Shown here one piece after another: positions 4,035 to 62,399 of a DNA stretch of 64,000 bases (position 1 is the stretch's first letter; each line of letters starts with the position of its first letter). Below the pieces are notes generated by a model. That model was not told the DNA's origin. It searched no databases and saw only the letters and a list, made by a program, of their open reading frames with translations. The position numbers and the translations under genes were made by a program. Source of the DNA: Eledone cirrhosa (taxonomy: Eukaryota); contig OZ024741.1 in NCBI GenBank assembly GCA_964016885.1, positions 337,652,001 through 337,716,000 on the forward strand, read 5' to 3'.

Positions 4035-7000
4035 TCTCTATATATATAAAACGGTAGATGTCTGTCTGTGTGTGTGTATGACTTTTATGCATTTCCACAT
4101 TTCTCTGCCGATTTTGATGATTTGTTTTTTCCAATGTGCTCCAAATTTACCAGGCCAGGTCAACGCGTAATTATTTTTGCCAAACATTTTCTGCTTCTAT
4201 GAAAATAAATCGATAAAACTAAATACATGCTGTAACCCTCTCTCTTACACGCTTCATTCCTCTCACTACCCTCAATCTCCCCTGCAATTCTCTTTAAAAG
4301 GTTACTGTATCCGTCTCTGAAGGAACGCGACACAAACTTTGATAACCCTCTCTCTTACACGCTTCATTCCTCTCACTACCCTCAATCTCCTCTGCAACTC
4401 TCTTTAAAAGGTTACTGCCTCCGTCTCCATTACAGTTTAGGTTCACACTTACATTTTACATCAAATAACAAATATTCAAAAGCAACAGATGAATTTATAA
4501 AACAACAAACGCAACAATAACGACCTCTCTATAATTTAACTGCTTTACTCTCTCTGTCGCTCTTCACTCCCTATATGACAACACTGCAGAGAGAGAAACA
4601 ATGTATATGATCAAATGGAGCGTTCCGTATATTCCCCCTCTCAATAATTTAACTGCTTTACTCTCTCTGTCGCTCTTCACTCCCTATATGACATCACTGC
4701 AGTGGAGCGTTCCGTATTGACATACGGCTTATCTGGGGCATTTTCAATCGGCTTATTGCAAATAACAACCCGCAAAATAACACTTCATATAACAGATTAA
4801 TGCTATAGACATATGAATCGGAATGTAACCCGTGAACTTTTTCCTGGGCAAAATTATTCGAACAGACATGACCTCATTGCCAGAGTGTTCAGACTGAAAC
4901 TGGATAAACTCATGGCTTTAATCAAAAAGGTCAGGTATTTGGGGCTGTAAAATGTGACATGTTCACCGTCGAATGGCAAAAACGAGGGCTGCCACATGCT
5001 CACATTTTGATTTGGTTAGCTGATAAAATCAATTCAAATGCCACAGACAGCTTCATTTCGGCTGAAATCCCTAACCCAGCAACTGACCAGGAATTACATG
5101 ACATCGTCAAAGCTAACATGGTCCGTGTGCGTCGGGTCCTAATGAGCATCACACGTATCTGAAGGGGGGGGGTCGTCCAGTAAGGGATACCCAAAAAAAT
5201 TTGTTGACGAGACTCAGACTGGTGGCGATGGGTACCCCCGTAAGGGGGAGAAGGCCCGAGAACGGTGGCTTCACCACAACAGTAAAGGGAGGTCAAGTCG
5301 ACAATAGATGGGTGGTCCCTTACTGCCCGCTTCTCTTGAAGATGTTCAACGCCCACATCAACGTTGAGTTTTGCAACTTCGTCAAGTCTATAAAATACAT
5401 ATGCAAATATGTAAATAAGGGTTCTGATGAGGTCACAGAATACCTGTCGGGGCGGTACATCAGTAGCAAAGAAGCTTTTTGGCGCCTATTTGGTTTACCC
5501 CTACCCCAACGGCACCCCGCCATCGTACAGCTTGCGGTACATTTGGAAAATTGGCAAAGGGTTTACTTTACGGACCAAACCGCCGCAAAGCTGGCCACCG
5601 ATCCGAAAGAGATCACTCTGACAGGTTTATTCAAACTTTGCCAGTTCGATACATTTGCGCAAACAATTGTGTACTCCCAGGTTACATCCTACTTTATATG
5701 GTCGAAAAACACTTGGGTGCGAAGAAAGTCAGGTCAGGCTGTTGAAAGACATCCTGGTGTAAAATTTGACAGCTGTCTTGGAAGGGTTTATTACACTGTG
5801 CCCCCAAGTCAGCATGAGTGCTTTCATCTCCGCCTTCTTCTGCATGAAGTAGGCCCACAAAGTTTTCAGGACCTCAAAACTGTTGATAGAGAAATATGTG
5901 ATACGTACCGGGAAGCCTGCTTTAAGCGTGATCTTTTGGAAGATGATTCGCAATGGGATTCCACTTTAGCAGAGGGTGCTTTGTTGAAATCACCTAAAGG
6001 TCTACTGGAACTCTTTGCCATTTTTCTTCAAAAGTGTGAATTGGGTGATCCCAAATCTTTATGGGTCAATTACAGAGACTTCATGACTGAGGATTTCCTG
6101 CGCCTGGCTCATCTGCAGTATCCTTTAGTGGAAGTTGCTTACAGCGGCATTATCTACAACAGGGCACTCATTGATATCGAGGACGCCCTCCTCGACATGG
6201 GTGGCAGTGAGTTGGCGACGTATGGCTTGCCGTCAACCGTCACAGATGAAGCTAACACGTTGGCCCCGGATTTGTTGCGGGAAACAGCATATGACATCGA
6301 ATCTCTTTCCCAATACTTAGAGGAAAATGAGCCCAAACGTCTGTCGGACCAAAGGTTGGCCTATTTAACTATCATTGACGCGGTTCAAAATCAGACTGGG
6401 GGTATTTACTTTCTCGATGCTCCTGGGGTACCGGAAAAACTTTTGTAACAAAATTGATTCCCGCTAAGATTCGTCAGGAGAAAAAAATTGCGTTGGCCGT
6501 TGCATCGTCCGGGATTGGTGCTACTTTGCTGTCGAGAGACAGGACAGCACATTCAACCTTTAAACTCCCCTTGGATTTAGTAAAAACTGAGACACCAACA
6601 TACAATATCAGCAAGAGCTCACATGAAGCTCTGGTTCTCAAAAAATGTTGCCTCATTGGTTGGGATTAGTGCACAATGGCACACAAGGGTGCTCTTGAGG
6701 CATTGGACAGGACCCTGAAAGACATTAGGGATCCTACGGCTCCTATGGGTGGCGTAACCCTTCTGCTATCAGAGGATTTTCGGCAAACGCTGTCTGTCAT
6801 ACCCAAAGGGACAAGAGCTTATGAAGTGCGTGCCTGCCTTAAGTCATCCACGTTGTGGCCCCAGGTGAAGACTTTGTACCTGAGCACAAATATGCGTGCT
6901 CAGTTGCATGGTGACAACATGTCTGCAGCATTTGCTCAGAACATTTTAGCACTTGGTGAGGGCAAAGTCCCTGCGAATGACAAGGGCGACATAGCAATCT

Positions 7001-8024
7001 ACTCCCTGTGCAACATTGTGAGCAGCCCTTCTGATCTTTGGGAGGCAGTTTTTCCTAATGTCTCATCTAACTTTAAAAACTTCGATTGGCTCAGCGAAAG
7101 AGCCATCCTTGCTCCGAAAAATGCCATGGTTAATTTTATTAACGAGCAGCTGATTGAGAAAATTCCCGGTAAAGAGCACATCTTCAAATCTATCGACCGG
7201 ACGTCAGACCCCGACGATATCGTTAATTATCCGGTTGAGTTATTAAATTCCCTTGAGCCTCCAGGGCTCCCACCTCACATTCTTAAGCTTAGGGTTCGCT
7301 GTCTCATTATGCTAATAAGGAACTTGCGTCCACCAAAGCAGTGCAACTGTACTCGCATGGTCGTCAAGTCAATGACGCCCCACTTGATTGAGGCCACCAT
7401 TGTAACGGGGTGCGGGAGAGGGAAGAATGTTTACATTCCAAGGATGAACCTTTTCCCCTCGGCGTCAGATATCCCGTTCGATTTCCGGCGATCCCAATTC
7501 CCGATGAGACCATGTTTTGCCATGTCCATTAACAAGTCACAAGGGCAAACATTGTCGGTGGCGGGCATCCATTTGGGAGAGCCATGCTTTTCCCATGGCC
7601 AACTTTATGTTACCTGTTCCCACGTAGGGAGCAGGAATGGACTTTTTGCTTACACTTCTCAAGGGATGACACGCAATATCGTCTACAAAGAGGTGCTATA
7701 GATGTTGGTGCAGGTGTTGGAGGTGTTGGAGCTATGCCGTCTGGAAAACTATTTCCTGGTAGGGTCACCCATGGCGGACAGATGTGACACCCAGCGGCAT
7801 CAGGGCCACCATCTTGCAACTTTTGTCTGCTAAATTCGCTATTGGAAGATTATTAACCCATCATTGATTGTCCAAAATGCTAATTGGTTCGTAACTTTTA
7901 ATAACCGGTTCAACTGCTTTATGCACTTAATTGATAAGCTTATTCGCTTTCAAGCCACGTTTACCTGTATGTAACTTTTCATAGCAAATGAATAAACCCG
8001 AGCAACGCCGGGCTAAACTGCTAG
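4035..8024 (+). mobile_element. Helitron (internally deleted, with RepHel remnant)
   Basis: 5' TC(TC)TATATATATAAAA; 3' hairpin cccgagcaacgccggg followed by CTAG (8021-8024) and T; Rep and helicase motifs. Confidence 0.95.
4820..7701 (+). pseudogene. Helitron Rep (HUH) / PIF1-type helicase, disrupted
   Basis: EWQKRGLPHAHILIW, KYICKYVNKG, frameshifted Walker A (DAPG..), SINKSQGQTL, HGQLYV; stop at 6667-6669. Confidence 0.93.
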
Positions 8025-9814: not shown

Positions 9815-11221
9815 TATATATATATATACATACATAAAAAACTCATCGCTAGAACAGTCGTTAAAAAAGCTAAATGCTGGACAAAAATACACTTTTGACT
9901 ATTCCCTTCTTAACGTTTCTATGGTGGTTTGAGAAGTAGCTAACATAATTGAGATTTTCATTTAATTTATGATATGGGTAGTATAGGCCAGAATTAAGAT
10001 TTAGCATTATGTTGATGAAGTTGGCTATTCTTCTGTTATTTCCTATTTCTAGCTTAAGACTATAATTGTTAAAAAAAAGTCTATTATTATTTTCTTTTTC
10101 CTATTTAGTCAAAAGTGTAGAACAGAGAATCTCTAGACTCTCAGCTAACAGGGAAATCGTTGATGGCAATGCTAGATACTATAATAATGCATTAGCTAGA
10201 GCAGATTACCAGGACAAAATTGAGTACATGCATATAGATAGAAACAATTACACACCCACTCATAGACTCAAACAAACCATAGACATAAACACTAACATAC
10301 ACACAATTAACGGTAATGGAAATAATAGGCGTACTCGAACCCCAAACAATACAGATGGGACAGCCCCGGCTCCAAATAGATATAACTCAAATACCATAAT
10401 AAAGTTAAATTAGAGGGTTAGATCTCACTCTGTTCTGTGGTACAATCCACCCCACTCCTTAGGACTACAAAAAACATAGCTAGGCTTTTTTTTAACACAT
10501 TAGATAAATGTCTCCCCAAATCACATAAATACAGTCAAATCTTTAATCGACACAGAAATAAACTTTCTTACTCGACAACCAAACGTATAGCCCAGAATAT
10601 AGCGAAGATTAACAATAGAAATCCAGGAATTAAACATAAAGAAATAACTCATAATAGCAAGCATAGAAACACTGATAGAGTAAACAGCAACTCGAATAAC
10701 AGGGATAACACCATTAACATAAATGAGATAAACCAACGGACACACAGACACAGGGAGGGAACAATGAATGGTAACGTAAATAATTGCAATTGCAGAAATC
10801 ATAGCAGTTGCCCAATGAAAAATAACTGTTTAGAGAAAAATATTGTTTATGAAATTGAAGTAAAAACGAGTAATAAGACGTATAGACATATTGATGCAAC
10901 TTCTACTAGATTTAAGAAAAGGTGGTACAACCATCACCACTCATTCAAAAGAACTAATAAAAGATCTAGCACAGCCCTGTCGGAACCGATTTGGTTGCTA
11001 ACAAATAAACAAGTGGAATACTCCCTTTCTTGGTCAAAACTCTCATATGCTTTTCCATATAAAAATGGATTTATATCTAGGGGTGTGTGACCTCTGTACT
11101 GCAGATACTTTACACATAAATAGTAGGCATAAAATTATTAACAAACGCTCTGAAATTTTTAATGCTTGTTTACACAAAATTAATAAGACATTCTGTTGAG
11201 TATATAGTTAAAACTTCAGAA

Positions 11222-15900: not shown

Positions 15901-16028
15901 ACCACGATAAGGAAGTAATATATTAGTTTAACGTTTGAAATAGCAGGAAGAGGGTCATTGTATATATATATAGGCTCTGATACCATCAACACTATAAACA
16001 CAGAGCTGGCATATCTAAGAACTGACTA

Positions 16029-16084
16029 ACTGCCTGATGAGGTCATAGGCATTCAATGGCTATCATCGAAATATATATAGCAGT
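16029..16084 (+). ncRNA. Type I hammerhead ribozyme, canonical core
   Basis: ACTGC-CTGATGA-ggtcataggcatt c aatggctatcatc-GAAA-TATATA-TA-GCAGT; stem I 5 bp, stem II about 10 bp, palindromic stem III. Confidence 0.85.
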
Positions 16085-16129
16085 AAATAAAGAAGTATGA
16101 GTTCATGCAATTGACTTATGTTTCGTCAC

Positions 16130-21300: not shown

Positions 21301-21998
21301 GGGTATTTGTGTGTGCGTATGTATGTGTATGTCCGTCGAGGCATACGTATGTACTGGCCTAAATCTTCACTATTTACTTTTACTATTTTAATAACCTCTG
21401 TCATTTTCGTTTTCAATTTTATTTACATCATTCTTAAACTCCGGGGCTGCAAATCATTCTGTTATGTTAAATAGAATATTAGTCTAACGACTTCATTTAT
21501 ACTATAAACTTGGTCTTGTCTTTGCATGAAATTGTTCTTCTCGCTCCACATAACAACGTATTATCCTTGCTTTTTTCCCGTTCATTGCCAGGGAACGTCT
21601 TCACGAACCAAAATATCGTCTTTCTGTTTTCGTTCGCTTGGAACGTTTCTCGAAATATTTACTTCTGCGTTCACAGATTACTCTCAGTTCAATTTGAATG
21701 GGAAATTCCTGTTTCATCGATTTTCTCCGTAACCATGGAAGCTTGTATCCTAAAAGTCAACCCAACACCTTCTCGGATCATTCTGCATAACTGTGTAAAT
21801 TTTTTCTGCATTCCACCAAGCCGTTTTGACGTTTATCCGACTACACTTACTTACTTAAATATACAACATCCGACCACTTCCAATTTATATAGTAGATAAG
21901 ATTATATATATATATAAAGATTGATATAAAAAGTATATCAAGAGGTGACCACAATTAAGAAAAGTACTCGATATGCTAGTAGAGTATAGACATTGAAC

Positions 21999-24647: not shown

Positions 24648-24884
24648 TGTACATTACACATGTGTATATATCTACATACCATTTTCTTTTCCAATGACTT
24701 TTCACAGGCAAAGTCATAACCCGCTATTTCCCACCGTTATTTACCCATGAGAACATTTCCCTACAAACAGCACACCCCCACCCACCCCCAACCCTAACAT
24801 CTCCCTTTTTCCCCAAACCCAACCTCCATCCCAGTTCCTTGATTATCACAACAGTGTTGTGATAATTAAAACTTCTTCCTCTTT

Positions 24885-26855
24885 CACTACCATCAGCACC
24901 TCCACCACCACCTCCACCACCACCTCCCTATCCTTCTTCCTCCATCATTACAACAACACCATCACTACCACCACTAACAACACCAACATCGCCACCACCA
25001 TTAACAACACCACCACCACCAACAACAACACCACCACTACCACCACCAACAACACCACCACTACCACCACTAACAACACCAACATCGCCACCACCATTAA
25101 CAACACCACCACCACCAACAACAACACCACCACTACCACCACTACCACCACCAACAACACCACCACTACCACCACTAACAACACCAACATCGCCACCACC
25201 ATTAACAACACCACCACCACCACCAACAACACCACCACTACCACCACTACCACCACCAACAACACCACCACCACCACCAACAACACCACCACTACCACCA
25301 CTACCACCACCAACAACACCACCACTACCACCACTAACAACACCAACATTGCCACCACCATTAACACCACCACCACCAACAACAATACCACCACTACCAA
25401 TACCACCACTAACAACACCAACACTGCCACCACCATTAACAACAACACCACCACCAACAACACCACTACCACCACTAACAACACCAACATCACCAACACC
25501 ACTAACACCACTACCAACACTAACAACACCAACATTGCCACCACCATTAACAACACCACTACCACCAACAACACCACCACCACCACTAACAACACCAACA
25601 CCACCACCACCACTAACAACACCACCACCACCACCAATACCACCACTACCACCACTACCACCAACAACACCACCACCACTACCACCACTAACAACACCAA
25701 CACTGCCACCACCATTAACAACAACACCACCACCAACAACACCACCACTACCACCAACAACACCACTACCACTACCACCACTAACAACACCAACATTGCC
25801 ACCACCATTAACAACACCACCACTACCACCACTAACAACACCACCACTACCACCACTAACAACACCAACATCACCACCACTACTAACAACACCACTACCA
25901 CCAACAACACCACCACCACTACCACCACTAACAACACCAACATCGCCACCACCATTAACAACACCACCACCAACAACACCACCACTACCACCACTAACAA
26001 CACCAACATTGCCACCACCATTAACAACACCACCACTACCACCACTAACAACACCACCACTACCACCACTAACAACACCAACATCACCACCACCACTAAC
26101 AACACCACTACCACTAACAACACCACCACTACCACCACTAACAACACCAACATTGCCAACACCATTAACACCACCACCACCAACAACAACACCACCACCA
26201 CTACCACCACTAACAACACCACTACCACCAACAACAACACCACCACTACCACCACTAACAACACTAACATCGCCACCACCATTAACAACACCACCACCAA
26301 CAACACCACCACTACCACCACTAACAACACCAACATTGCCACCACCATTAACAACACCACCAACAACAACACCACCACTACCACCACCACTACCACCACT
26401 AACAACACCAACATTGCCACCACCATTAACAACACCACCACCAACAACAACATCACCAACACCACCACCACCAACAACAACATCACCACCACTACCACCA
26501 CTAACAACACCACCACCACCAACAACACCACCATCACTACCACCACTAACAACACCAACATTGCCACCACCATTAACAACACCACCACCACCAACACCAC
26601 CACTACCACCACTAACAACACCAACATTGCCAACACCATTAACACCACCCCCACCAACAACAACATCACCAACACCACCACCACCAACAACAACATCACC
26701 ACCACTACCACCACTAACAACACCACTACCACCAACAACAACACCATCACTAACAACACCAACATTGCCACCACCACTAACAACACCACTACCACCACCA
26801 ACAACACCACCACTACCACCAACAACACTACCCCACCTCAACACTACCACCACTA
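24885..26855. repeat. 2 kb (ACC/AAC/ACT) triplet satellite with higher-order unit
   Basis: Recurrent accactaacaacaccaacat(t/c)gccaccaccattaac. Confidence 0.95.
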
Positions 26856-27059
26856 TAACCTATAACAAATAATTCCCATGACATGAACTAAGCCAACAAT
26901 AAAACAACAACACATGTTGTCCTTTGTTAAACAATAGGCATGGTCTATCTTTGTCATATCTTTTGTTATAGTTGATCTGCTGAAAAAAATAGGTATTATT
27001 GTTATTATAATTAGGGTGTTGGGTTGACAGTATCAGTAGATATGGTTTGTGACACTTAG

Positions 27060-30399: not shown

Positions 30400-31696
30400 T
30401 AAAACATGAGAAGAAAGAAGAATACTGCGTGGTTTGCACATGGGTTACATATGATAAAAATAGTCCTTCGTCAGTGATTTTCCAACCATCATTGGTATTT
30501 CATCGCATTAAAAATCAGATACCTCAAGTTGGTGCGAGCAATAACTAAAAAAAGTTATTGGGACCAGAATTCGCGTAAGGCGAGGGGGACAAGTAAACAA
30601 CATAGAAGGATAAAAGCAAACCGAAGATAGGAAAATAAACAAGCAACATGGTTGTCCGGTCAGCATAAACTGGGTGGATTTCATGAGCGAGAGAGGTACA
30701 GACCGTGTTGATGTGTGTGAGATGTGAGCAAGAAGAGACCCACACAAGCCAAACGGGAGGAAGTGAGAAGGGAAGAAACAGAGAGTGAGTGAGTGGAAGT
30801 GTGAGGAAGAGGTCAGTCGAGAGAAAGTGTAACTGACAGAGGGGGCGAAAGAAGGTGAGAGAAACAGAGAGAGCGGGGAAGCAGTAAGAGAGAAACAGAC
30901 ATAAAAAACTGGTTCAGCAAATATTTACTAAAATAACAGATTAAAGTTTAATCAAAGAATCACTGCTTTCACCCTTAACAGGATCTTAAGGGTGAAAGCA
31001 GTGATTCTTTGCTTAAATATAATAAATAAATATATATATATAAATAAGAGGAAAGCACGAATGGGGGTTAGTTTCCCTTCATCAGCTGTCTTCTGGAGAT
31101 CATGGACATTTCTACGCATTAAAGAGAAGATATCTAGCTCCAGTGCATCAATAACTAAAGGAAGTTATTATGGAAAAATTCTGTGACCTGTTCTCTCTTT
31201 CTCCCTATCTACTTTCTCGCTATCAACTCTTCCCCCCTCTTTCTTTCTCTCCCTTTCTCCCTCTCTCTCTGCTAGCTGCCCCGTTACTTCTGCGGTTTTT
31301 CTCAACTCTGCCTCTTTGTTTTTCTACTCTCATGGAGGTCAGACCTGTTTTTTTTTTCACTCTCTGTTTTACCGTCTACTCAGCCTCGGTCTCAAGTCCA
31401 GTAGCTGTTGTTGACAGCCTTTCTTTCTCTTCCATTGCTACTACACGTGCTTCTCGTGTTTCTCTCTTCAGTATGTTTTTTCCCGATTTCTTTCCGATTT
31501 TTCTTTGGTTTTTTTTCTTTCTTTTTTTCCCTTCTGTTATATTTTTTTTCCTCTCTCTCAATTTTTCCCTAATAACTTCCTTAGCTATTAACGTACTGGA
31601 GTTAGACATATTGTCTTTAATGCGTAGAAATGTCCATGATCTCCAGAACAACGCAACAACACAGCCCCTGTTCTTTCACAAATTTATATACATACA

Positions 31697-32626: not shown

Positions 32627-32930
32627 TCATGATGATTTCATACAAATGAAACAGTACTAGTCCTGTATAAGTCTTTTCTATATAAACTTCAGTCTTCACT
32701 CTACACATGTATTGAGTACCTTATTTACTGTGGTTACCCCGACTCAACTCGAGACCTACTTATATATATATATACACCCCATGCACCACTACACTATGCC
32801 CTCTCCGATCATATACCCCTATCACTTTTTTATAACTTTTTTAACCTTTATTTTCCACTTCATGTTTTATTTTTATCCCATTTTTCTCGCTAACTCCCCC
32901 CTCACTCCTTCTCAGAGTTCCTCCCCCCAC

Positions 32931-32966
32931 TCTCCTGATGAAGAGCTTATGCCTGAAACGTCGCAA
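32931..32966 (+). ncRNA. Minimal hammerhead motif, stem I decayed
   Basis: CTGATGA-AGAGC ttat GCCT-GAAACGTC. Confidence 0.6.
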
Positions 32967-34588: not shown

Positions 34589-34919
34589 ATTCAATGATAT
34601 TAAATAAATGGAAACTATATTTATAAAACCATATTTATTCTATTATATATATTTCAAGGGTACCAAAATTTTGGTATGCTATCATCAGATAAAATACAAA
34701 ATCTTTTATAAATATTTGACATGACCAAAGATAAAGTGACTTTCCATGGATAACATGAACCGTTAAGGTATATTATCTTTGGTCATGTCAAATATTTATA
34801 AAACATTTTGTATTTTATCTGATGATAGCGTACCAAAATTTTTGGTACCCTTGAAATATATATGATAGAATAAATATGGTTTTATAAATATAGTTTCCAT
34901 TTATTTAATATCATTGAAT
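34589..34919. repeat. Inverted repeat (about 146-bp arms, 38-bp spacer) with a hammerhead in each arm
   Basis: Arms 34589-34734 and 34773-34919; motifs at 34639-34693 (-) and 34814-34869 (+). Confidence 0.92.
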
Positions 34920-35478
34920 ATTTACTCCAGAAATCTGTCAAGTGCTCTGAATCAGTTATAAACATCTATATTTGTTGATTTCCAACAAATTAAATATCTC
35001 TTCTACATATATAATATATACATATATATATATATATCTCCCTTGTCGAATTCCATGTGCGTATTTCGCTTGTAGTTAGCCTCTTATCCGCTAGGAAAAA
35101 GCTCGTTGATGAAGTAAACTCCATTCCGCTTGCTCTAGTAGTCTTATATATTTATATGTGAGCTGATAGAGTACAGTCTAAGGATTTACAGAAACCCAAG
35201 AAGCTAGATTTAACACCTTTCTAGTGGGTCCGGGTATGATTTTACATTCATTTAAATTATTGATGTATTGTTTTATTGATATTTTTTATCTGTTTGTCCC
35301 GAATCTTCTATTATCGATTTTTTATCGTATGGTTGATTTTAGACTTGTTCTATGTGTGACGGTATTTTAACGATAGTTATAGCTCTGATTCATCTGAATT
35401 ATTGAGCCCTCTGCCGCTCATTTCGAATATTGTTTATCGTGAACTCGTGCGCCGATTTTTCGATACTCGATCTTTCTA

Positions 35479-36510: not shown

Positions 36511-36720
36511 TATATTAATAAAAGGAATTCCAACTTTGTCTGATTTACTCGTTTTATTTACAATCCTTTAAAATTTATAATGGTATTAGAATGAAATAGT
36601 ATGGTAGATTAAAACTTAACATTTAATAATCTACCATACTATTTCATTCTAATACCATTATAAATTTTAAAGGATTGTAAATAAAACGAGTAAATCAGAC
36701 AAAGTTGGAATTCCTTTTAT

Positions 36721-36727
<7 letters not shown>
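36511..36727. repeat. Perfect inverted repeat, about 101-bp arms, 15-nt loop
   Basis: Direct reading; adjacent to (TA)n. Confidence 0.95.
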
Positions 36728-36758
<31 letters not shown>

Positions 36759-36857
36759 ATTTATATATAGGAAAAGAGTTAGGACCCCACTCTACCCTAA
36801 GTATCAAGTACTCTGGTGCGTTATGGTCCACCTGGTTCCTTACCACACTTTCTTTGT

Positions 36858-36893
<36 letters not shown>

Positions 36894-38449: not shown

Positions 38450-41400
38450 TTGTTATACTTTGGGAGGGTCATGTTGCCAATAAGAAACACATGCACCAGT
38501 TGCTTTCACTTCAATTTATTATAATAAATTTATAAATTTAGGAATTTTTATGATTCTTTACTATCTTGAAGGTCTCGCCAGTGTTCATTTATCCGTTCCC
38601 CTATACTACGAGCTGTCTCACCTATGTACACTATATTCTTATCTCTACATTATCCTTCAGTACATCTTATGCTATATACTACATTTCTAGTTTTATAGTT
38701 AATATGGGGGCTTAATTTACAGATTACACATTTCTTATCTATACAGGGAGGTCTTTGGAAAGGTATGTATTGCTAATAAGTGTTTTTATGGAGGTACCTG
38801 GTCTTTCTACTATCTTACTATTGAGTTTATGTTTATCTAGGGCCCTTCTAAATTTGTAAGCTAATTCACCTCTAGGGGTTGTATCGATGAACATTACACT
38901 CTGGTATTTATTGCTATCATACCATGAGTTTATTCTATTAACCTTATTCCTAGTTCTTTCTATTCTATTCCAAAATTTGTTCCTATACAAGGGGCAGGTC
39001 CCATTTGTGTCATTATTTACCATTTTTTCCCATTTGGTTCTGACTCCTCTATATACTCTGATTTTATCTCTCTGGTTGTAACCAGAGAACTGCATACGGT
39101 GGATGAAGTGTTGTATGTGTCTCTCTAGTTCTTTGGGGTTGCACATGCGGGACTCGTTTCTCATCACTCGTACCAAATCCGCAATCAGTATGTTGATTTT
39201 GGTATGGTCCGAAACAGCTGAGTTTCGGTGGATCAGATGTTTGGAAGTCATGGGTTTGGCATAATGGGAATGGAAGATTTGTTTTTTGTTATTAATGGTA
39301 TCTAACCAGAGTTCTGTGTCTAGTACAGGTAATCGATGGTTGGGGTGTTTACTTGGGTAGTTTATAGTAACTCTAATGCTCTGGTGGATGGAGTTAGCTA
39401 TTTGCTGGATGCTTTCCATTGTGTTTTTCTCTTGTTCCTGACTGTTCTCTAGTGGGGGTGTCTTAACTACGATGTTTATATCATCAACGTAGCGGGAGTA
39501 CATTATCAGGGTTAAGGGGTCTTCTAATCGTTCTTTAAGTTTAAGTTTACGTCTACTGTCCCACCATACCATGAATAAGTTAGCTATGTCACCTGCAATG
39601 CTAACACCAATGGCTGCTCCTTCCTCTTGGGCATATGTTTTTCCATTAAATTTGAACATATGTTCCTTAAGGGTTAGTTTTATGCTGGCCCCTACCGCAT
39701 GTGCAATCATTTTCTTCAGTTCATCGTGGTTTTCGGGTGTCCGTATGGCTCTGGTTCACCCGTTCCATCTATCTGTGTGGGTTTTCTTGGCCATTGAGGT
39801 AATGGTAGGTGGTCTGCCTCTTGCTGGTCTTGTAGGGCACAGGTTGCTAAAGTCATATGTGTCTAGGTAATTATTACTATAGGTAAGTTTAAGTAGGAGT
39901 CCCAGCTCACTGGTATCAATCCCACGGAACTCAACATTGCTCTCACTGATCATTTCTACACATTTCTCCACAGCAAAATCCACGTCAATAGATGGATACA
40001 GGGACACAACATCCATACTACCTATTATGCAGTTTGTTAGGTCCCTAGATCGCTTACTCTCGCCGATTCTGCTGAGGAGGTCCTCCGTGCTGTCACATAC
40101 ATCTGGGGACATTTCAATGATCAGGGAGAGGAAGTAGGACAGTCTGTAGTTACTAGCAATGTTAGCTCCACAGACTGGCAGTGTTGGTGGTCCCGCGACA
40201 GGGTCACTGCCCATTTTATGGTCTTTTCGAAGCCCATACAACGCCGGCACGTCATTGTTCCAGGCCTGGAAGTTGTTGGCAGTCCTTTTGTTGGGCTGCA
40301 TTATATTCGTCCACATCACCATATGGGCATTGAGGGCTTTTTCGCTATCCTCATGCTCCTGTTGTGTTACCTCTCTTGTGTTGGTGATGTTGGGTTGCAT
40401 TGCCTGGATGTAGTTTGGCAGGCTGTCAACCGACATTCTGCCAGACTTGTCTGTTGGAAAGCATGCTATCTCTCCATTACGCGAGCGCTGCATGAGCTTA
40501 CGCAAGCCATTTGCAGATTTTTCTCCCAGTTGCTGGGCCTCCATTATATTATGCTTCTTGCTATACTGTTCTATAATATTTCTAAGTTCGGATCTAGCTA
40601 TACTAAATTGTGCTTCTGTTTGTTCATCGACCTGCGACGGCAATTGCGTGCGTTTATTAAATGGTAAAGTCGTGGCGTGGACTCGTCGCAGGTCGAACGA
40701 TTTATCGGAGGGATTATAAAAAGTAGAGTTCCAGGCTGCTGCTTTATGTGTACTAGTGCTATTGTTATTGTTAGTTGTGTTGTTTCTATTTCTATTTCCA
40801 CCAACAGCCTCATGGTTGTTTCTATGTCTCCCATAATTACTCCTGTCTCTTTCCACTGGCTCATTGTTGTTATCTACCCTATTTGTGTGTCTGTGTGTTC
40901 GTCTTGGTTATTTTCTTTGTCCTTAGTCTCCCTTCTCCTTTTAATCCTATTACTTTCCCTTATTTCTGTGATTTCTGTGCTACTGTCATTACTTGTTTTC
41001 TGTGTCTGTGTGTTTGTTAAGATTGTGGTGGTGGTGAGAGGCATTGAATGTGTGTGTGTTGTTGTTGTTGATGTGTGTTGTTGTCTCCGTGTGTGTTATT
41101 ATTGTTGTGTGTGTTGTTATTGTTGTTTGTGTCTGCGTGTCTGTTGTTGTTGTTTCTGGGTATGTTATTATTGTTGTTGTTGTTGTTGTTGTTGTTGGTG
41201 TGTGTGTTGTTGTTATTGTTGTTTGTGTCTGTGTGTCTGTTGTTGTTGGGATGTGTGTTGTATATGTGTGTGCGTATATTGTTACTTTTGTTTTTGTTTT
41301 TGTTTTTGTTTTTGAGGCTCCAGCGTAGTTTTGTAAATGATTTTTCTATTTCTGACAGACAACTAATCATATTTACCTTCTTGAGTGTCGCAAATTTCGG

Positions 41401-42529
41401 TGGTAGACGTAATACAGATAACTCATTGTCATCTATTACTGTGTTGCCGTATATATTTGTGTTGTTGTTGTTGTTGAACTCTTCTGTTAATGAGGTGTCG
41501 GCCATATTTATACCGTCAATTTTGTCGGGATATCTATTGGTATTCTCTACAGTATCCTGATTTAGCTTTATCTGCTTAAGCCACTTTAGTTTCTTGTTAA
41601 AGTGCTTATCACAATCTTGAGTAATGTACTGTTCTTCAGGACGTATAAGGCTTATAAATATTAGTTTCTCTCTTGGTGTGGTGATCCTAGCTATTCCTTG
41701 TATTACGCTTGTATACGCTTATGTTTTTCTTGATGACTTAATTCTCTATAGATCTTTTTTATGTTTAGAATTAGTGTTCGTTTTAGCCTATCTGCTTGTT
41801 TTTTTGGTGAGTTGTAATCTTCTTACGTCGGTGTTGATGGTGTTGGTGTAAACTCGGGACGAGGCACATTCTTTTATGAAGTGTAGTTGTCGAGATGTTA
41901 TGGTTTTTCGTAGACAACAGAACATGGTGGTTTTCAGTATCTTGTTAGCCTGGCTAAGGCTTACGATATTTCGTTTCTGAATTTGTTTAGCAAGATTCTT
42001 TATCTGAAATCGTGTGTTGAAACCGATATTGTTATACTTTGGGAGGGTCATGTTGCCAATAAGAAACACACGCACCAGTTGCTTTCACTTCAATTTATTA
42101 TAATAAATTTATTATAAATTTATAAATTTCTGGTTGGTTGGTTGGTTCCACAACCAGATAGTTGTTTATATATTGTCATAGTTCTTTCGTCACACACTCT
42201 GTGACCTCTTCAGTGACTGGGGATTCCTTTCTTTGTTTCTGTGCCTCTCCTTTGTTCTGTCCTACGCCATTTTGTTTCTGTGTGTGTGTTGTGTGCAGAA
42301 CAAAGGAGAGGCACAGAAACCAAGAAAGGAATCCCCAGTAACTGAAGAGGTCACAAAGTGTGTGACGAAAGAACTATGACAATATATAAACAACTATCTG
42401 GTTGTGGAACCAACCAACCAACCAGAAATTTATAAATTTATTATAAATTTATTATAATAAATTGAAGTGAAAGCAACTGGTGCGTGTGTTTCTTATTGGC
42501 AACATGACCCTCCCAAAGTATAACAATAT
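38450..42529 (-). mobile_element. Near full-length Penelope-like element (Naiad-like), disrupted ORF, inverted pLTR at the 5' end
   Basis: ORF start MTLPKYNN at about 42051; LRLPPKFA..KLRW, PTDKSGR, GSMDVVSLYPS, GAAIGVSIAGDIANLFMVWWD, YVDD, GIY-YIG remnant; clade assigned from remembered motifs. Confidence 0.92.
42175..42217 (-). ncRNA. pLTR hammerhead (further copies 42338-42380 +, 42958-43000 -)
   Basis: Same motif as 45579-45621. Confidence 0.8.
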
Positions 42530-42538
42530 GTATATATA

Positions 42539-42591
<53 letters not shown>

Positions 42592-42596
<5 letters not shown>

Positions 42597-42702
42597 AACA
42601 AGTAAGACCCCGACGGCTGAGCTCAAGCCGTTTCGACGGCTAATTCAGAATTAGCCGTCGAAACGGCTTGAGCTCAGCCGTCGGGGTCTTACTTGTTCCT
42701 AT
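42592..42702. repeat. Perfect palindrome, 55-bp arms, 1-nt centre, built from the 3' half of a hammerhead
   Basis: Centre at 42647; GAA-ACGGCT-tgagctc-AGCCGT-C-GGGG. Confidence 0.95.
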
Positions 42703-42859
42703 TACCCACTCTACTACCCTAAGTATTGAGTACTTTGGTGCGTTATGGTCCACCTGGTTCCTTACCACATTTCCTTCGTTATATATATATATGGGAGGAG
42801 ATTATAGTTCACTTGAAGCATTGTGTAATGAGGTATAAACGTTTGTATATGTATAATAA

Positions 42860-45778
42860 AGTTGCTTTCACTTCAATTTATTATAATAAATTTATAATAA
42901 ATTTATAAATTTCTGGTTGGTTGGTTGGTTCCACAACCAGATAGTTGTTTATATATTGTCATAGTTCTTTCGTCACACACTCTGTGACCTCTTCAGTGAC
43001 TGGGGATTCCTTTCTTTGTTTTTGTGCCTCTCCTTTGTTCTGTCCTACGCCATTTTGTTTCTGTGTGTGTGTTGTGTGCTCAGTCTGCGCATGCGCCTCA
43101 TCCGGGTGTCTGTGTGTGTTTATGTTCATTTATTTATTTGTTTATTTACATGTTACTGGTTGGTTGTTTGTCTATGTGTGTGTGTGTGTTCATTTTGTCC
43201 TTAATTGTAAGTTGTGATGTTGCTGTTCCACTCATATTTTCTATTTAATTTTGGTTGTAATTCTTTTATGTTTATTGCCTCTGTGATTTGTCTAAACATT
43301 GCGTCTTTTCTGTGTGTAGATTCTATTTTTATTTCTATGTTCTCTAATTTACCCTTGTGTTCTATTTTAGCATGTTGGTAGAGTACAGATGATTCTTTAC
43401 TATCTTGAAGGTCTCGCCAGTGTTCATTTATTCGTTCCCCTACACTACGAGCTGTCTCGCATATGTACACTATATTTTTGTCTCTACATTATCCTTCAGT
43501 ACATCTCATGCTATACACTACATTTCTAGTTTTACAGTTAACATGGGGGCTTATTTTACAGGTTATACATTTCTTATCTATACATGAGGGTCTTTGAAAA
43601 CGTTATGTCTTGCTAATAAGTGTTTTTATGGAGGTACCTGGTCTTTCTACTATCTTAATATTGAGTTTATGTTTATCTAGGGCCCTTCTAAATTTGTAAG
43701 CTAATTCACCTCTAGGGGTTGTATCGATGAACATTACACTCTGGTATTTATTGCTATCATACCATGAGTTTATTCTATTAGCCTTGTTCCTTGTTCTTTC
43801 TATTCTATTCCAAAATTTGCTCCTATACAAGGGGCAGGTCCTACTTAAACTTACCTATAGTAATAATTACCTAGACACATATGACCTTAGCAACCTTTGC
43901 CCTACAAGACCAGCAAGAGGCAGACCACCTACCATTACCTCAATGGCCAAGAAAACCCACACAGATAGATGGAACGGGTGGACCAGAGCCATACGGGCAC
44001 CCGAAAACCACGAATGAACTGAAGAAAATGATTGCACATGCGGTAGGGGCCAGCATAAAACTAACCCTTAAGGAACATATGTTCAAATTTAATGGAAAAA
44101 CATATGCCCAAGATGAAGGAGCAGCCATTGGTGTTAGCATTGCAGGCGACATAGCTAACTTATTCATGGTATGGTGGGACAGTAGACTTAAACTTAAACT
44201 TAAAGAACGATTAGAAGACCCCTTAACCCTGATAATGTACTCCCGCTACGTTGATGATATAAACATCGTAGTTAAGACACCCCCACTAGAGAACAGTCAG
44301 GAACTAGAGAAAAACACAATGGAAAGCATCCAGCAAATAGCTAACTCCATCCACCAGAGCATTAGAGTTACTATAGACTACCCAAGTAAACACCCCAACC
44401 ATCGATTACCTGTTCTAGACACAGAGCTCTGGTTAGATACCATTAATAACAAAAAACAAATCCTCCATTGCCATTATGCCAAACCCATGACTTCCAAACA
44501 TCTGATCCACCGAAACTCGGCCGTTTCGGACCATACCAAAATCAACATACTGATTGCGGATTTGGTACGGGTGATGAGAAACGTGTCCCGCATGTGCAAC
44601 CCCGAAGAACTAGAGAGACACATACAACACTTCATCCACCGTATGCAGTTCTCTGGCTACAATCAGAGAGATAAAATCAGAGTGTATAGAGGAGCCAGAA
44701 CCAAATGGGAAAAAATGGTAAATAATGACATAAATGGGACCTGCCCCTTGTATAGGAGCAACTTTTGGAATAGAATAGAAAGAACTAGGAACAAGGCTAA
44801 TAGAATAAACTCATGGTATGATAGCAATAAATACCAGAGTGTAATGTTCATCGATACAACCCCTAGAGGTGAATTAGCTTACAAATTTAGAAGGGCCCTA
44901 GATAAACATAAACTCAATATTAAGATAATAGATAGACCAGGTACCTCCGTAAAAACACTTATTAGCAAGACATACCCTTTTCAAAGACCCTCATGTATAG
45001 ATAAGAAATGTATAACCTGTAAAATAAGCCACCATATTAACTGTAAAACTAGAAATGTAGTGTATAGCATAAGATGTACTGAAGGACAATGTAGAGACAA
45101 AAATATAGTGTACATAGGCGAGACAGCTCGTAGTGTAGGGGAACGGATAAATGAACACTGGTGAGACCTTCAAGATAGTAAAGAATCATCTGTACTCTAC
45201 CAACATGCTAAAATAGAACACAAGGGTAAATTAGAGAACATAGAAATAAAAATAGAATCTACACACAGAAAAGACGCAATGTTTAGACAAATCACAGAGG
45301 CAGTAAGCATAAAAGAATTACAACCAAAATTAAATAGAAAATATGAGTGGAACAGCAACATCACAACTTACAATTAAGAACAAAATGAAAACACACACAC
45401 ACATAGAACAAACAACCAACCAGTAACATGTAAATAAACAAATAAATAAATGAACATAAACACACACAGACACCCGGATGAGGCGCATGCGCAGACTGAG
45501 CACACAACACACACACAGAAACAAAATGGCGTAGGACAGAACAAAAGAGAGGCACAAAAACAAAGAAAGTAATCCCCAGTCACTGAAGAGGTCACAGAGT
45601 GTGTGACGAAAGAACTATGACAATATATAAACAACTATCTGGTTGTGGAACCAACCAACCAACCAGAAATTTATAAATTTATAAATTTATTATAAATTTA
45701 TTATAATAAATTGAAGTGAAAGCAACTGGTGCGTGTATTTCTTATTGGCAACATGACCCTCCCAAAGTATAACAATAT
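42860..45778 (+). mobile_element. Second copy of the same PLE: 3' part (43839-45778, +) preceded by an inverted duplicate of its 3' ~980 bp (42860-43841, -)
   Basis: 427-aa ORF with YVDD, CxxxxCxxC and NVVY..YIGETAR; junction microhomology TCC. Confidence 0.93.
45579..45621 (+). ncRNA. Minimal type I hammerhead ribozyme in PLE pLTR
   Basis: GTCA-CTGAAGA-G-GTCACA gagtg TGTGAC-GAAAGAACTA-TGAC. Confidence 0.82.
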
Positions 45779-45886: not shown

Positions 45887-47171
45887 CAGGGTGGGGCATA
45901 ATTCCTGTTACAAAGTTTTAAATCAATTTAAAAATACATTATGTTGCTAATATAACTAATATATCTGTATCAAATCCATGCACTATAACCATATTAACTA
46001 TTTTTCAGAACATTACTCCATTAACAATTTGCAATGTCCATAGATTTGAAAAGAAAGTTCATTATAGAGAAGCATGAAAAAGGCCTGACTCCACCCAAGA
46101 TATTTAAACTGGGGAAAATTCTTAAGATCAATAGAATGTTGATCAAAAGGAAAATCGATCGATTTAAAGAAACTTCCTCGACCAAAGACAGACCTTGATC
46201 CGGACGCCCTCGCACCTCAAGAACACCAAAACTCGTTAAAAGTGAGGGAAAAAATAAGGCGTAATCCAAGAAGGTCCATGAGAAAAATGGCAGAAGAAGC
46301 AGAAACGTCACCGAGAACTATGCGGAGGATATGTCGAGATGATCTGGGGATGTCACCCTATATGTTCCAAAAGAGGCAGCTTCTTTCTGCAGCCACAATT
46401 GAAAAGAGGCTCTCCAGAAGTAAACTGTTATTGAACCGTATCAAGGATGGCACGCTGCAAAACATCATCTTTACAGATGAGAAGTTATTCCCTGTGCAGC
46501 AGTCTCACAATCATCAAAATGATCGAGTACTTGCAAAAAGTCTCCAATCAATTCCTTCAAGTGTAGGAAAAGTGTTCAGAACACAGAAACCAGCATCAGT
46601 GATGGTTTGGGCAGCCATTTCTGAAAGAGGGAAGTCTCCTTTGATTTTTGTGCCTCAAGGAGTTAAAATTAACAAATAACTTTGCATAAAGGATATTTTG
46701 GAAGGAGCACTGATGCCATGGTGCATATCTGTTTATGGCGATGACATTTGGACTCTCCAATAAGATGGAGCGACGAGCCACACTGCTTGCGTAACACAAT
46801 AGTGGTGTAGAGACCGTTGTCCTGCATGGATCAGTAATGAAGAGTGGCTTTCCACATCACCAGATCTCAACCCTCTCGATTTTTTTTATGGTCAATTCTT
46901 GAGAGTGAAGAGTGCTCTACTCCTAGCTAAAATATTGAAACTCTAAAATCAAAACTGAATAAGGTATGGGAGAAAATAACCATGGAAACTGTTTGTGCAG
47001 CCATCGAAGACTTTCCTAGAAGTGAGAGCTAGAGGAAAGCATTTCGAATAAATGTTTGTGCAGTTGTTTAATAGTATATTACTTACTATTTGTTGAAGTC
47101 AGATCTTGAAATAAATGTTTTTTTCAAGAACTATTTGCATTTTATTTTGTAACAGTTTTTATGCCCCACCC

Positions 47172-47231: not shown

Positions 47232-49462
<2,231 letters not shown>

Positions 49463-58568: not shown

Positions 58569-59412
58569 ATTCTTCCTTGTCCCCTATTGTATTAGTCACC
58601 TTCACCTAGAAGGCAGGGCGAAGGGGCAGGACAGGGCATTGGTAGATGCAAGTGCAATAATCACAAACAATGTCACTGCCAACAATCCAACTCATCTTAA
58701 TTGTTTGATATTGAAGAAGTGACACAAAGCAGAATTTACTTGCTATATAAACAAGGAAGAAAAGAAAATACTGAAAATGATATTTTTTTTAAAAACCTGA
58801 TTTTACAAATTGTATGAAAAATTCAAGACAATATTTATAATTTATTTGTATTATTTTTAATGTAGTATTTTTTGTTGCTATTTATTAATACCTTTGTATA
58901 TTTACATCATGTTGTGGATCAGTGTTTCGCAAGTTAAATAACACACACACACACATATATAATGTTGTCATTTGATTAGTTAAAAATGCAATTAATTATT
59001 TACTTAGGAATAAGAAACTCTTAGGAGAGCTGGACAGCAGAAGGTCATCAGAGAAGACACCCTCCCCCTCCTCAAGTAAGTGTTTCGGCCCTTAACTTCT
59101 CATGCACAGAAATATATGATAAGTGAGAGAAAAAAGAAATGTAGTATTAGTGACCAGATGATAAAATTGTTTAAAGTTTTTAAAAAATATTAAGGAAGTT
59201 ATAAAATAACTGAAGTGAAAAACAAACATTCAATATACAAAATTTCACAATGCCATGAAATATCATTGACAATATACAAAAATTGAGCAGTATCTAATAA
59301 AAACAAAGCACACTAATAATTATTCCTTAATTCTTAAAAAAAATCTTTTAAATTTTATTTTTATTTAAAATTTTATTTTTTTCTAAATTATAATTTCAGA
59401 TAAATATATATA

Positions 59413-61791
59413 ATGTTTCAAAAAGTCTGTTTTTTGTTGCTTTTTGTTACAACTGTCAGTGTAGACATTACATACAGAGTGAAGGAAAATTTACTCCCAG
59501 GGACGTTCATAGGAGATATAGCACGAAATGTCACACTGCCATCTATAAGACGAAGTGAGGTGAAATTCTCACCACTACAAAAGAATGAATTTTCTGATTT
59601 TTTCAATATCAGTAAGAAAGGACGCCTTTATCTGGCTAAAACAATTGATGCTGAAATAACATGTAAATATAACACAGAATGCTTTGAAATACTCGAAATT
59701 GCTGTCCTAAAGAAAAAATCATTTGTGAAGATACTGGAAGTAAAAGTTATAATCGAAGACGTGAATGACAACAGACCAGATTTTCAAGAGAAGTATATAA
59801 ACCTGCAGTTTTATGAAACAGATGGGAAAGGAACAAAAAAATCTGTTCCAAATGCAGTTGATAAAGATGTTGGATTCTTAAATTCACAGATAACATACAG
59901 CTTAGGGAATATACACAAGCAATTTATGTTGAAATCAAACAAAAGAGTTGACGGTTCATCAAAACTAGAGATTGTCCTCACTGAAGAATTAGATCGAGAA
60001 ATAAAAGACACTTACTTAATACAAATAATTGCAAAAGATGGAGGCTCTCCACCAAAATTGGGTGTTTCGAATGTTCAAATAATGGTCACTGATGCAAATG
60101 ATAATACTCCTGAATTTACTCAAAATACCTACAATATTTCACTCAATAATACACACAAAATAAGCAAACCAATTGTTACACTACAAGCAAGTGATATTGA
60201 CTCAGAAAAAAATGGACAAATTTCTTACCATTTTGGAGCAAAAACTACACCATTAACCAAACTACATTTTAAACTTAACAAGTCAACAGGAGAGATATTC
60301 TTGTCAAATGATTTCTCTTTTAATAAGAAACAGAAATATATGTTATATATTGATGCCAAAGATGGTGGTAATCCACCTATGAGTTCAACTGCCATTCTAC
60401 AAGTCAATATTGAAAATCAAGATAACGAAACTCCAAGTATAGAACTCAATTTCTTTTCACAGACAAATGAAGAAACAGCCAATATATCTGAAGATGTTGA
60501 TATTGGAAACTTTGTAGCTTATGTGAAAGTTATTGACAATGATATTGGAACCAATGGACAAGTAAGCTGTCAATTGGAACATGAAGATTTTATTCTTCAA
60601 CCTTTAGATGATAAGAAATATAAGATAGTTGTGAAGAATACCATTGACAGGGAAGTAAATAGCTATATTGAATTTAATATTTCTTGTCATGACAGAGGCT
60701 CACCACCAAAAACAGCAGTAAGAAAAGTTTCTATACAAGTGATAGATGTCAATGATGTTAAACCTCAGTTTAGTCAGGAAACCTTTCAATTTTTCACTTA
60801 TGAAAATGGAGAAGCAGACTTTCCAATCGGTCTAATCAATGCCACTGACCCGGACCTGGGTGCAGGCGGTCAACTGACATATTATCTCATGAATACCACT
60901 GAAAATCTACTCCCTTTCAGGATTTCAAATTATGGTTTTATCACAACAACACAACCACTGGACAGAGAGAAACAAGATAGATACAGGCTGGTAGTTGTAG
61001 TAAAAGATAATGGGACACCATCACTGAAAAATACAGCAAATGTTATTGTTGAAGTTATGGATAAAAATGATAATGTTCCCTATTTCACTTTTCCTGGAGT
61101 GGATCCTTTCCATCTTAAAGTCCATTATCATCCTCAAAGACAAAAATCCATCACAACTCTCAGAGCATATGACAGAGATAGTCAGTTAAATTCTTTTCTT
61201 CAATATGAAATACTTAATGGCAATGACAAACAGTTATTTTCCCTTGACACATATTCTGGAGTTTTATCATTTTCTCGTACCATTTACAATATTGATGCTG
61301 GTTTCTATAAATTGAATTTGTCTGTTAAAGATGGTGGAACTCCAGTTTTGTTAACAACAACATCATTAACTTTGACATTGACAGTCAGTAATAGTACCTC
61401 TAAATTATTGACAAGCCGTCACAAATTCTCAACCAAAGAAATACCAGTTAACATGATGGTTATTATACTAGTAGCAGCTGTTATTGTATCTATAACTATT
61501 GTGGTGTCTATAACTGTATGTATTGTGAGGAGAAACCATCAAAGAGAAATCCTTTACAGTGAAAGAAGAGAACAAGGTCAGAAATTCATGAATGAAAGTG
61601 GACAGCCTGAATATAGATGTAACCCAATGTCTCCTCAGAGTGACAGCCAAGAAGTAATGTTGACACATCCAGGAATTGATTCTGCAGTTTCTCAAGCAAC
61701 ACTGTTAAGAAAAGAACTCTATCCTGATTCATCATGGCAAGGTTCTCCATTGCAGTCTCATCGACAGAACATCTGCCAGGGAACAAACCAG
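59413..61791 (+). CDS. Protocadherin, large first coding exon (signal peptide, 6 cadherin repeats, TM, proximal tail)
   Basis: DVNDNRP, LDRE, AKDGGSPP, DANDNTP, IDRE, DKNDNVP; EC1 C-x5-C; TM MVIILVAAVIVSITIVVSITVCIV; acceptor at 59399; phase-0 donor cag/gtaaaa at 61791. Confidence 0.96.
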
Positions 61792-62399
61792 GTAAAAATG
61801 CAATATCTACATTAAACAAGATGAAATGATTGTGTACATATTCCTGCATGAATTAATTCTGAATATAAATGATGTTAAACTAGCTATAAAAACTTCAGGA
61901 GGAGCTGTATCAAACTTCTTCTATCTCACAGTAAATTATAACTTTCCTTATATCCAATTTTCTATGACAGTAAGCAAACAAATGTTATCTTGAATCTATA
62001 ATTTTGATTACAATAATCATTACATTGGATGTGATTTTTTTCTTGTCAATATATGACTAACATTCATCAACACTATTAATCATTTTGTTACTGTATTTCT
62101 AATGAGATATTTTGTATTTTAATTAATTAACAAAAGATTTGCAAAAATGTTCATCTCATTAAGATAGTTTTTGTAGCATAATCTCATTTAAAGTTATGCT
62201 GGAAGGTTTTAACTTAAGTAGGAACTCTTTAAAATAGGTGGGGGTTTTCATAGAAACTAAAGCAGTCTAAAGGTTGGTACAAAAAGGGTTAACCTGTTTA
62301 GTATAAGAATCCTGTTAACTTAACTCAGGAGAGCTGAAAAACAGGTCTTCAGAGAAGAACAACCCTCATGCAAGTGTTTCAGCCCTTAACCTCTTCACA

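Follow-up and report, generated by a model that had tools for sequence, protein, structure and literature searches.

The 64,000-nucleotide stretch of the Eledone cirrhosa genome analyzed here (NCBI GenBank assembly GCA_964016885.1, contig OZ024741.1, positions 337,652,001 to 337,716,000 of the forward strand; "the window" below) carries at 42592-42702 a perfect palindrome. It belongs to a Penelope-like retrotransposon of which the genome holds tens of thousands of short copies set back to back. This short insertion, with its two arms head to head, derives from a Hydra-clade Penelope-like element (PLE), and it was probably made when two target-primed complementary DNAs (cDNAs) ran off the 5' end of their RNA template and were then joined. 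The joints of such palindromes likely mark RNA 5' ends, namely a capped start within the hammerhead ribozyme of the element and, more rarely, the cut site of that ribozyme. Genomic DNA sequence is the evidence throughout. Positions in the element are counted from the G of the hammerhead GAAA (position 0, window 42660). Counts from the sequence show a parent element, a hammerhead of the U3-A8 type, two fixed 3' ends (one per arm, each joined to (TA)n), a shared upstream limit near -18, an untemplated G before A(-18), and a class of insertions that end at the predicted cleavage site.

The palindrome has arms of 55 bp each, as the initial annotation of the window had described, and a 1-nt centre. 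It is flanked on both sides by (TA)n (target tracts at 42540..42591 on the left and 42780..42792 on the right); it sits within the (TA)n of a Neptune-like cluster at 38550-45682. According to the arm alignment, its left arm (42592..42646, minus strand) is a tail-less inverted copy of element positions -12 to +42 and is likely a cDNA primed at the end of the pseudo-long terminal repeat (pLTR). It meets the tailed arm head to head at 42646..42647 with an overlap of 1 nt, and the tailed arm begins at -14, which is 4 nt short of the RNA start that we place at -18. Along the plus strand of the right arm follow the 3' strand of hammerhead stem II (42652..42659), which pairs with its 5' strand in full-length copies; the GAAA half of the core (42660..42663); a 6-bp stem III (42663..42681, strands 42663-42668 / 42676-42681) with the 6-nt palindrome GAGCTC in its loop; the predicted self-cleavage site between C42682 (C17) and G42683 (42682..42683), placed by the type I hammerhead fold and by counts of double-ended junctions; and the stem I 3' strand (42683..42687), which pairs with a partner upstream of the core in full-length copies in 94-99% of cells. 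GGGGT stands directly after C42682. All of this agrees with the first reading of the right arm as the 3' half of a type I hammerhead.

A tail of about 80 nt (42702..42780, plus strand) follows, which is the start of the next unit and continues into a body bearing an open reading frame (ORF), both in the long copy L155 and in 68 tail-to-body matches. If the tail has the meaning given to it in PMC11167929, it would span the gap between two reverse transcriptase (RT) start sites. The tail had also been noticed a second time in the window with a shorter inverted piece, and we find this copy at 36768-36863, with a 21-nt inverted arm (36768..36788, minus strand, checked by eye) and only the tail on the other side (36786..36863, plus strand, by sequence comparison; 88% identity over 81 nt to a natural full-length copy). 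Its inverted arm ends at the cleavage site or at most 3 nt away, a CCC overlap blurring the exact end. The repetition of the tail is not due to chance, because a 32-nt word of it matches the 3.0-Gb genome exactly at 21,375 places, while the reversed control has 0.

Breakpoints were compared in 90 tail-anchored loci aligned to natural full-length copies. These loci come from the first 100 matches listed, all within the first 25 Mb of contig C1, from which the final seven, a single further locus and a pair of long copies were excluded; dropping two spurious calls at -322 reduced the inverted arms from 70 to 68. A short inverted arm is thus present in 68 of the 90 loci, with the same architecture and differing junctions. 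Sixty-four of these 68 arms start at the pLTR end, opposite a tailed arm, and one carries the tail. Upstream, 58 tailed arms extend as far as -11, and 52 of them stop by -24 (52 of 60 when the two long copies are included); all 54 inverted arms that reach -11 likewise end 11-24 nt upstream of GAAA, in loop II of the hammerhead. Loss per nucleotide is 6-7% in the zone from -11 to -24, compared with 0.4% downstream and 0.05% upstream of it. Inversion points are therefore far from uniform, as had been expected. Some junctions contain untemplated runs of A or T.

The breakpoint zone holds the word T/C-A-G-T (YAGT) with its A at -18, an initiator-like word. The base before A(-18), for which the template has T or C, is G in 6,014 and A in 997 genomic matches, while a control, the base before A(-13), gave G 46 and A 54 among the 100 matches listed (by eye). 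About 17 of 30 G cases inspected by eye have no explanation from the other arm. G-A(-18) terminates both arms of 276 insertions, and the 0-6 nt that separate the arms are most often one A or T. In a sibling subfamily, whose loop II differs, TAGT is retained at -18, and the 100 matches listed show G 32 and A 11, the remaining C 57 being a templated variant. An untemplated 5' G has been read as a copied cap in work on L1 (PMC9341517), and copying of a 5' cap would account for the G found here; the Penelope pLTR has an initiator (Inr) transcription start (PMC2377424). A(-18) thus appears to be a capped RNA polymerase II start at an initiator inside hammerhead loop II. With such a start, the 5' copy of the ribozyme in the RNA would be only half a ribozyme.

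A second Hydra-clade family in the window, F2, served as an independent test. It is represented by a short palindromic copy at 30916..31017 and a longer copy at L301:1645-4903; one of its words has 34,342 matches, and its ORF is 53% identical. In F2 the putative start site is 25 nt away from GAAA on the upstream side, where a putative stem I begins, and precedes a degenerate core (by eye); base counts there were G 61, A 18 and C 21 among 100 matches listed. The hammerhead-like fold of F2 is itself degenerate, with position 4 changed and U where cleavage would occur. Read-through copies are more frequent in F2 (about 16 of 30). Since the sibling subfamily keeps TAGT and the F2 limit lies upstream of its core, the upstream limit follows the initiator-like word and not stem II. 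Possible further clusters of 5' ends were seen in F2 about 76 and 105 nt upstream of GAAA.

A smaller class of insertions ends elsewhere. There are 302 insertions whose two arms both stop at G+23, the base after the predicted cut, or just short of it, compared with 7 and 11 at two control positions. Among 50 listed loci of this class, 25 have +23 as the exact end of both arms and an untemplated spacer, mostly A or T. Single-base spacers at the cleavage site are A or T in 12 of 13 cases; a cap G is thus lacking at these ends, and the G belongs specifically to -18. Counting single arms at this site gave 364 matches, too mixed with substitutions and microhomology to be used. The double-ended junctions suggest that the hammerhead cleaves in the germ line and that its 3' product is sometimes copied. 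The study of the PAc element reports no RNA-seq reads at the cut site of that element (PMC11167929). The initial proposal that ribozyme structure sets the inversion point survives in part: one such point appears to exist, and it is the cleavage site, used in a minor class.

The half of the hammerhead that is missing from the palindrome was found in longer copies about 60 nt upstream of GAAA, as a stem I 5' strand followed by the core. This core is mostly UUGANAA (U3-A8; 5,696 genome matches), with all four bases at position 7 and nearly fixed neighbouring positions; one subfamily has a C3-A8 core (CUGANAA) and some copies have U3-G8, variants that may be weaker ribozymes. A CUGANGA half had been expected in full-length copies. 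The full ribozyme does exist, with UUGANAA or CUGANAA in that place, and a pattern search built on CUGANGA missed the true core and returned mostly chance junctions. The U3-A8 variant is known from Schistosoma PLEs (PMC4209133). Besides the core half, the hammerhead has GAAA and a GUC cleavage triplet. Its three stems are paired in 89.6% of cells across 18 copies from two subfamilies, far above slid controls; three stem II pairs differ on both sides between the subfamilies (few independent events), and no two-sided pair changes were found within one subfamily. The hammerhead fold is the minimum-energy fold in three of five full-length copies (z -0.3 to -2.7). In Rfam, no hammerhead match was among the 150 of 187 window matches listed, which were sub-threshold hairpin or microsatellite matches. 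Stem II is longer than first read, and loop II measures about 45 nt. It had been stated that an inverted copy replaces the 5' half of the ribozyme in the palindrome; as a correction, the stem II 5' strand read there is an inverted copy only, and the true strand lies about 50 nt further upstream in full-length copies.

Longer copies of the palindrome family run upstream into a 3' untranslated region and an ORF. In L155 the tail continues uninterrupted into the body, and successive hammerheads stand 3,118 bp apart with the ORF between them, an intact frame of 718 aa at L155:3480-5633. The predicted protein has an RT-like YRDD, a C-terminal YIG indicating an endonuclease of the GIY-YIG type, SDKT at residue 116 (DKG modified to DKT), RWR at residues 37-39 as a conservative variant of the N-terminal RWK motif, and CxCX5C, CxxC and CxH at residues 572, 670 and 698; CCHH is absent (by eye). 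A Pfam search with this and the other Hydra-like ORFs gave no match. Naiad PLEs were rejected as the source, as they carry an N-terminal endonuclease and the endonuclease motifs are C-terminal here. Non-LTR retrozymes are non-coding tandem repeats with a complete type I hammerhead in each; these too were rejected, as the short copies here are inverted with half a ribozyme and the parent encodes an RT. Hydra-clade elements insert into (TA)n (PMC8557442), and (TA)n also flanks the copies here; the L155 unit, at 3,118 bp, slightly exceeds the "<3 kb" given in that paper. By eye the element resembles Hydra-1_Obim, as would suit a probable cephalopod host. Judged from its motifs and from a by-eye likeness to Hydra proteins in the supplement of PMC8557442, the parent is a Hydra-clade PLE, and the first assignment of the palindrome to Penelope-like elements therefore holds.

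In the mechanism that we favour, both strands of a (TA)n tract would be nicked by the endonuclease, and a cDNA would be primed from each nick. Priming would take place at the pLTR end for one cDNA and at the tail end for its partner, two internal start sites with a distance of about 80 nt. For PAc, in vitro work has shown two such internal RT start sites (PMC11167929). The templates would usually be the same RNA or RNAs of one source element, and both cDNAs would extend to the RNA 5' end. In most copies the cDNA 3' ends would then be trimmed by 0-7 nt and joined by microhomology, blunt joining or a template jump; in the window copy, trimming would have reached -12 and -14 before joining with the 1-nt overlap. 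The minor class, which comprises hundreds of insertions, would have been copied from the 3' cleavage product of the ribozyme. Arms of one insertion are alike, 33 of 39 pairs differing by at most one base compared with 30% of random pairs; arms of one subfamily fit a single RNA as well as they fit a fold-back. A few joints link different subfamilies or families (L104, L255, L018). Two of these, L255 (G000:C1:4180831-4183864) and L018, are chimeric insertions with one arm of the palindrome family and one of F2 or the Neptune-like family, which suggests joining between cDNAs of different PLEs. Head-to-tail repeats of the segment from -18 to +28, a rare direct-repeat product, were observed at L171/L172 (G000:C14:35628608-35628682).

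Several results weigh against this mechanism. A linear capped RNA copied from its 3' end predicts full-length copies that start at -18, and none was found: 30 of the 68 tail-to-body loci were examined, 13 of them match the body for at least 1,200 nt, 11 of these 13 long copies reach the zone in the upstream pLTR, and all 11 extend past it, so that 0 of 11 start at -18. Because all 11 cross -18, long copies would need a further step, such as strand transfer, read-through transcripts or the circular RNA proposed in PMC4209133. About 13 of the 30 inspected G cases can be read as coming from the other arm, and read-through copies with C-to-A substitutions are part of the A(-13) control. In some arms the match to the template continues to -19...-24, which may reflect chance, microhomology or further start sites, and jumps that lead directly from -18 to a cleaved 3' end are rare, with 12 matches. 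With respect to the cleavage class, 14 of the 50 listed loci are blunt and are also explained by a CG overlap, 11 extend beyond the site, and the five single arms that stop between +20 and +24 among the 90 loci are not clearly above background. The Neptune-like family has no limit near its hammerhead (3 of 100 copies listed break within 19 nt upstream of the core), and the rule may hence be specific to Hydra-clade elements.

A more tentative scheme, which on balance we doubt, would link start and ribozyme. Transcription would begin inside the element's own ribozyme and give a capped 5' half; cleavage at the 3' copy would leave a 40-nt redundancy (-18 to +22) that could enable a retrovirus-like transfer of a strong-stop cDNA, or completion of the 5' half in trans followed by circularisation. 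The pLTR and partial tandems would be regenerated in this way, and the short palindromes would be failed strong-stop products. Head-to-tail repeats of the segment from -18 to +28, a rare direct-repeat product, were observed at L171/L172 (G000:C14:35628608-35628682).

Of the other explanations for the palindromes, the one that fares best takes the -18 end to be a processed RNA end. Such an end could stem from an endonucleolytic cut followed by a C added by the RT, from recapping, or from use of the nearby YAG as a splice acceptor. RTs are able to add C when no cap is present, and the region resembles a 3' splice site in having a pyrimidine run and then AG. Penelope pLTRs are also known to hold introns (PMC2377424). 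However, no common upstream exon occurs at the junctions, the A/T spacers at cleavage-site ends, which would be uncapped, set the G at -18 apart, and YAGT is retained at -18 while loop II diverges. We therefore regard a processed end as unlikely.

The initial annotation proposed that reverse transcription stalled in loop II after copying stem II and that the cDNA folded back and self-primed the second strand. We find this quite improbable, even though breakpoints cluster in loop II, a weak distal hairpin covers -24 to -15 in the subfamily of the palindrome, and the two arms are mostly of one subfamily. The second arm of a self-primed hairpin must begin several bases short, because paired bases and a loop are needed; the 276 insertions with the same terminal base and G on both arms and 0-6 nt between leave no room for a paired primer and a loop, and self-priming cannot give them. 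Furthermore, in 27 of the 68 loci it is the tail-less arm that is the longer one, by at least 10 nt in 18 of them; later loss of palindrome centres could yield unequal arms, and deletions could explain part of these differences. All 11 long copies cross the zone where the RT should stall, F2 stops upstream of its core, and a stall does not predict a position-specific G. The second strand would also have to halt at one TA site in 64 of 68 copies.

For the Penelope palindromes of rotifers, self-priming with an antisense transcript as template was proposed from palindromes at inverted junctions (PMC3846280), and it would explain the head-to-head orientation. Here the untemplated G marks the sense strand at its 5' side, the cleavage class agrees with a ribozyme in sense orientation, and the two fixed sense-strand 3' ends match two RT start sites found in vitro (PMC11167929), all of which makes an antisense template highly improbable. 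Finally, an artefactual fold-back in sequencing or assembly is extremely unlikely: short-read contigs aligned at the locus did not span the palindrome, but 68 of the 90 sampled loci share one architecture while differing in their junctions, carry untemplated bases and have arms diverged by mutation, and inverted joints also appear in short-read contigs (whose runs may be of the same sample).

The window contains further PLEs and palindromes. The Neptune-like Penelope element at 38550-45682 contains large inverted pieces and ORF fragments with RT and GIY-YIG, and a minimal hammerhead is present in four of its pLTR copies. Words upstream of this hammerhead resemble NRF1 and YY1 sites. A palindromic copy of another PLE family at 34590-34950 carries a minimal hammerhead with a canonical core on both arms and has its axis about 60 nt upstream of the core; one of ten harvested copies of this family breaks in loop II. 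The palindrome at 36511-36727, with arms of about 100 bp, lies beside (TA)n and has a tail on one arm; no GAAA was found on its outward strand and no further copies in the collected loci. The coincidence of axis and ribozyme that had been pointed out in two other families of the window is thus not supported family-wide. Hammerhead-like motifs with a canonical first core half occur at 16022-16095 and 32926-32965, and degraded pieces of a further Hydra-like ORF, one segment inverted, were found by tblastn at 9882-11193.

The remaining features of the window are an 803-codon ORF with cadherin-type repeats (59404-61815, plus strand), likely a protocadherin exon as judged by eye from the translation; Helitron-like Rep/helicase fragments (5117-7701, plus strand, by eye); Tc1/mariner transposase fragments at 46143-46679 and 47633-48921, the second with Pfam Transposase_1 and DDE_3 matches; and an array of about 2 kb at 24751-26872 made of CAC/CAA-rich units of 9-15 nt and open in several frames.

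Inverted copies, the tail, the U3-A8 core variant and the Hydra clade itself are already known. The initial annotation knew of no earlier description of its mechanism; self-priming had already been proposed for head-to-head PLE palindromes (PMC3846280). Our literature search, which covered mostly open-access papers, found no mapping of cap G at PLE junctions, no start site in hammerhead loop II and no junction evidence of cleavage. The formation of inverted repeats in PLEs, the regeneration of pLTRs and hammerhead cleavage in vivo are named as open questions in PMC8557442, PMC2377424 and PMC11167929. The present family offers tens of thousands of recent copies with countable junctions, and these favour a capped sense template with two cDNAs per insertion over self-priming. 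To the single base, they also predict where transcription starts, where the RT starts at its two sites and where the ribozyme cuts, and the same counting of junctions can be applied to any PLE-rich genome. If our reading is true, the joints are DNA evidence for how Penelope-like elements copy themselves.

L1 twin priming uses two primers on one RNA and joining by microhomology, and copies two non-overlapping parts of the RNA, whereas here both cDNAs would copy the same 5'-terminal stretch and thereby give a palindrome. Retroviral minus-strand strong-stop DNA is a short cDNA that runs from an internal primer to the RNA cap; the short cDNAs proposed here are alike in reaching the cap and differ in having no tRNA primer. 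Among PLEs, the closest relatives are those of the Hydra clade, including Hydra-1_Obim (Craig et al. 2021, PMC8557442), which share the single ORF with a C-terminal GIY-YIG-type endonuclease, DKT, CxCX5C, CxxC and CxH, the unit of about 3 kb, (TA)n targets, a sense-strand pLTR hammerhead, inverted 5'-truncated copies and a one-sided tail. The Hydra hammerheads in four rows of the supplement to that paper are C3-G8 with short loops, compared with U3-A8 and a loop II of about 45 nt here; the tail is about 80 nt here and 30-40 nt in Hydra-clade PLEs, and RWK reads RWR. We found no analysis of start sites or junctions of Hydra-clade PLEs in the passages of PMC8557442 that were consulted.

The Cercyon hammerheads of Schistosoma (Cervera and De la Peña 2014, PMC4209133) share U3-A8, a palindromic loop III and paired motifs on opposite strands. 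They are minimal and thought to need dimers, whereas the present hammerhead has a stem III of 5-6 bp and an extended stem II whose loop holds the putative start. Penelope elements of Adineta vaga (Arkhipova et al. 2013, PMC3846280) share head-to-head inverted pLTRs with palindromes at the junctions; those junctions were read as self-priming, probably on an antisense template, while two cDNAs from a capped sense RNA are favoured here. PAc, a Poseidon element of Anolis (Frangieh et al. 2024, PMC11167929), has two adjacent internal RT start sites that define a tail, as proposed here, and we liken the present element to it also with regard to nicking and extension of both target strands, AT-rich targets and a predicted dimer. 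The PAc study left inverted copies unexplained, and the genomic junctions described here point to a capped start and a ribozyme cut site as the ends at which the two cDNAs meet.
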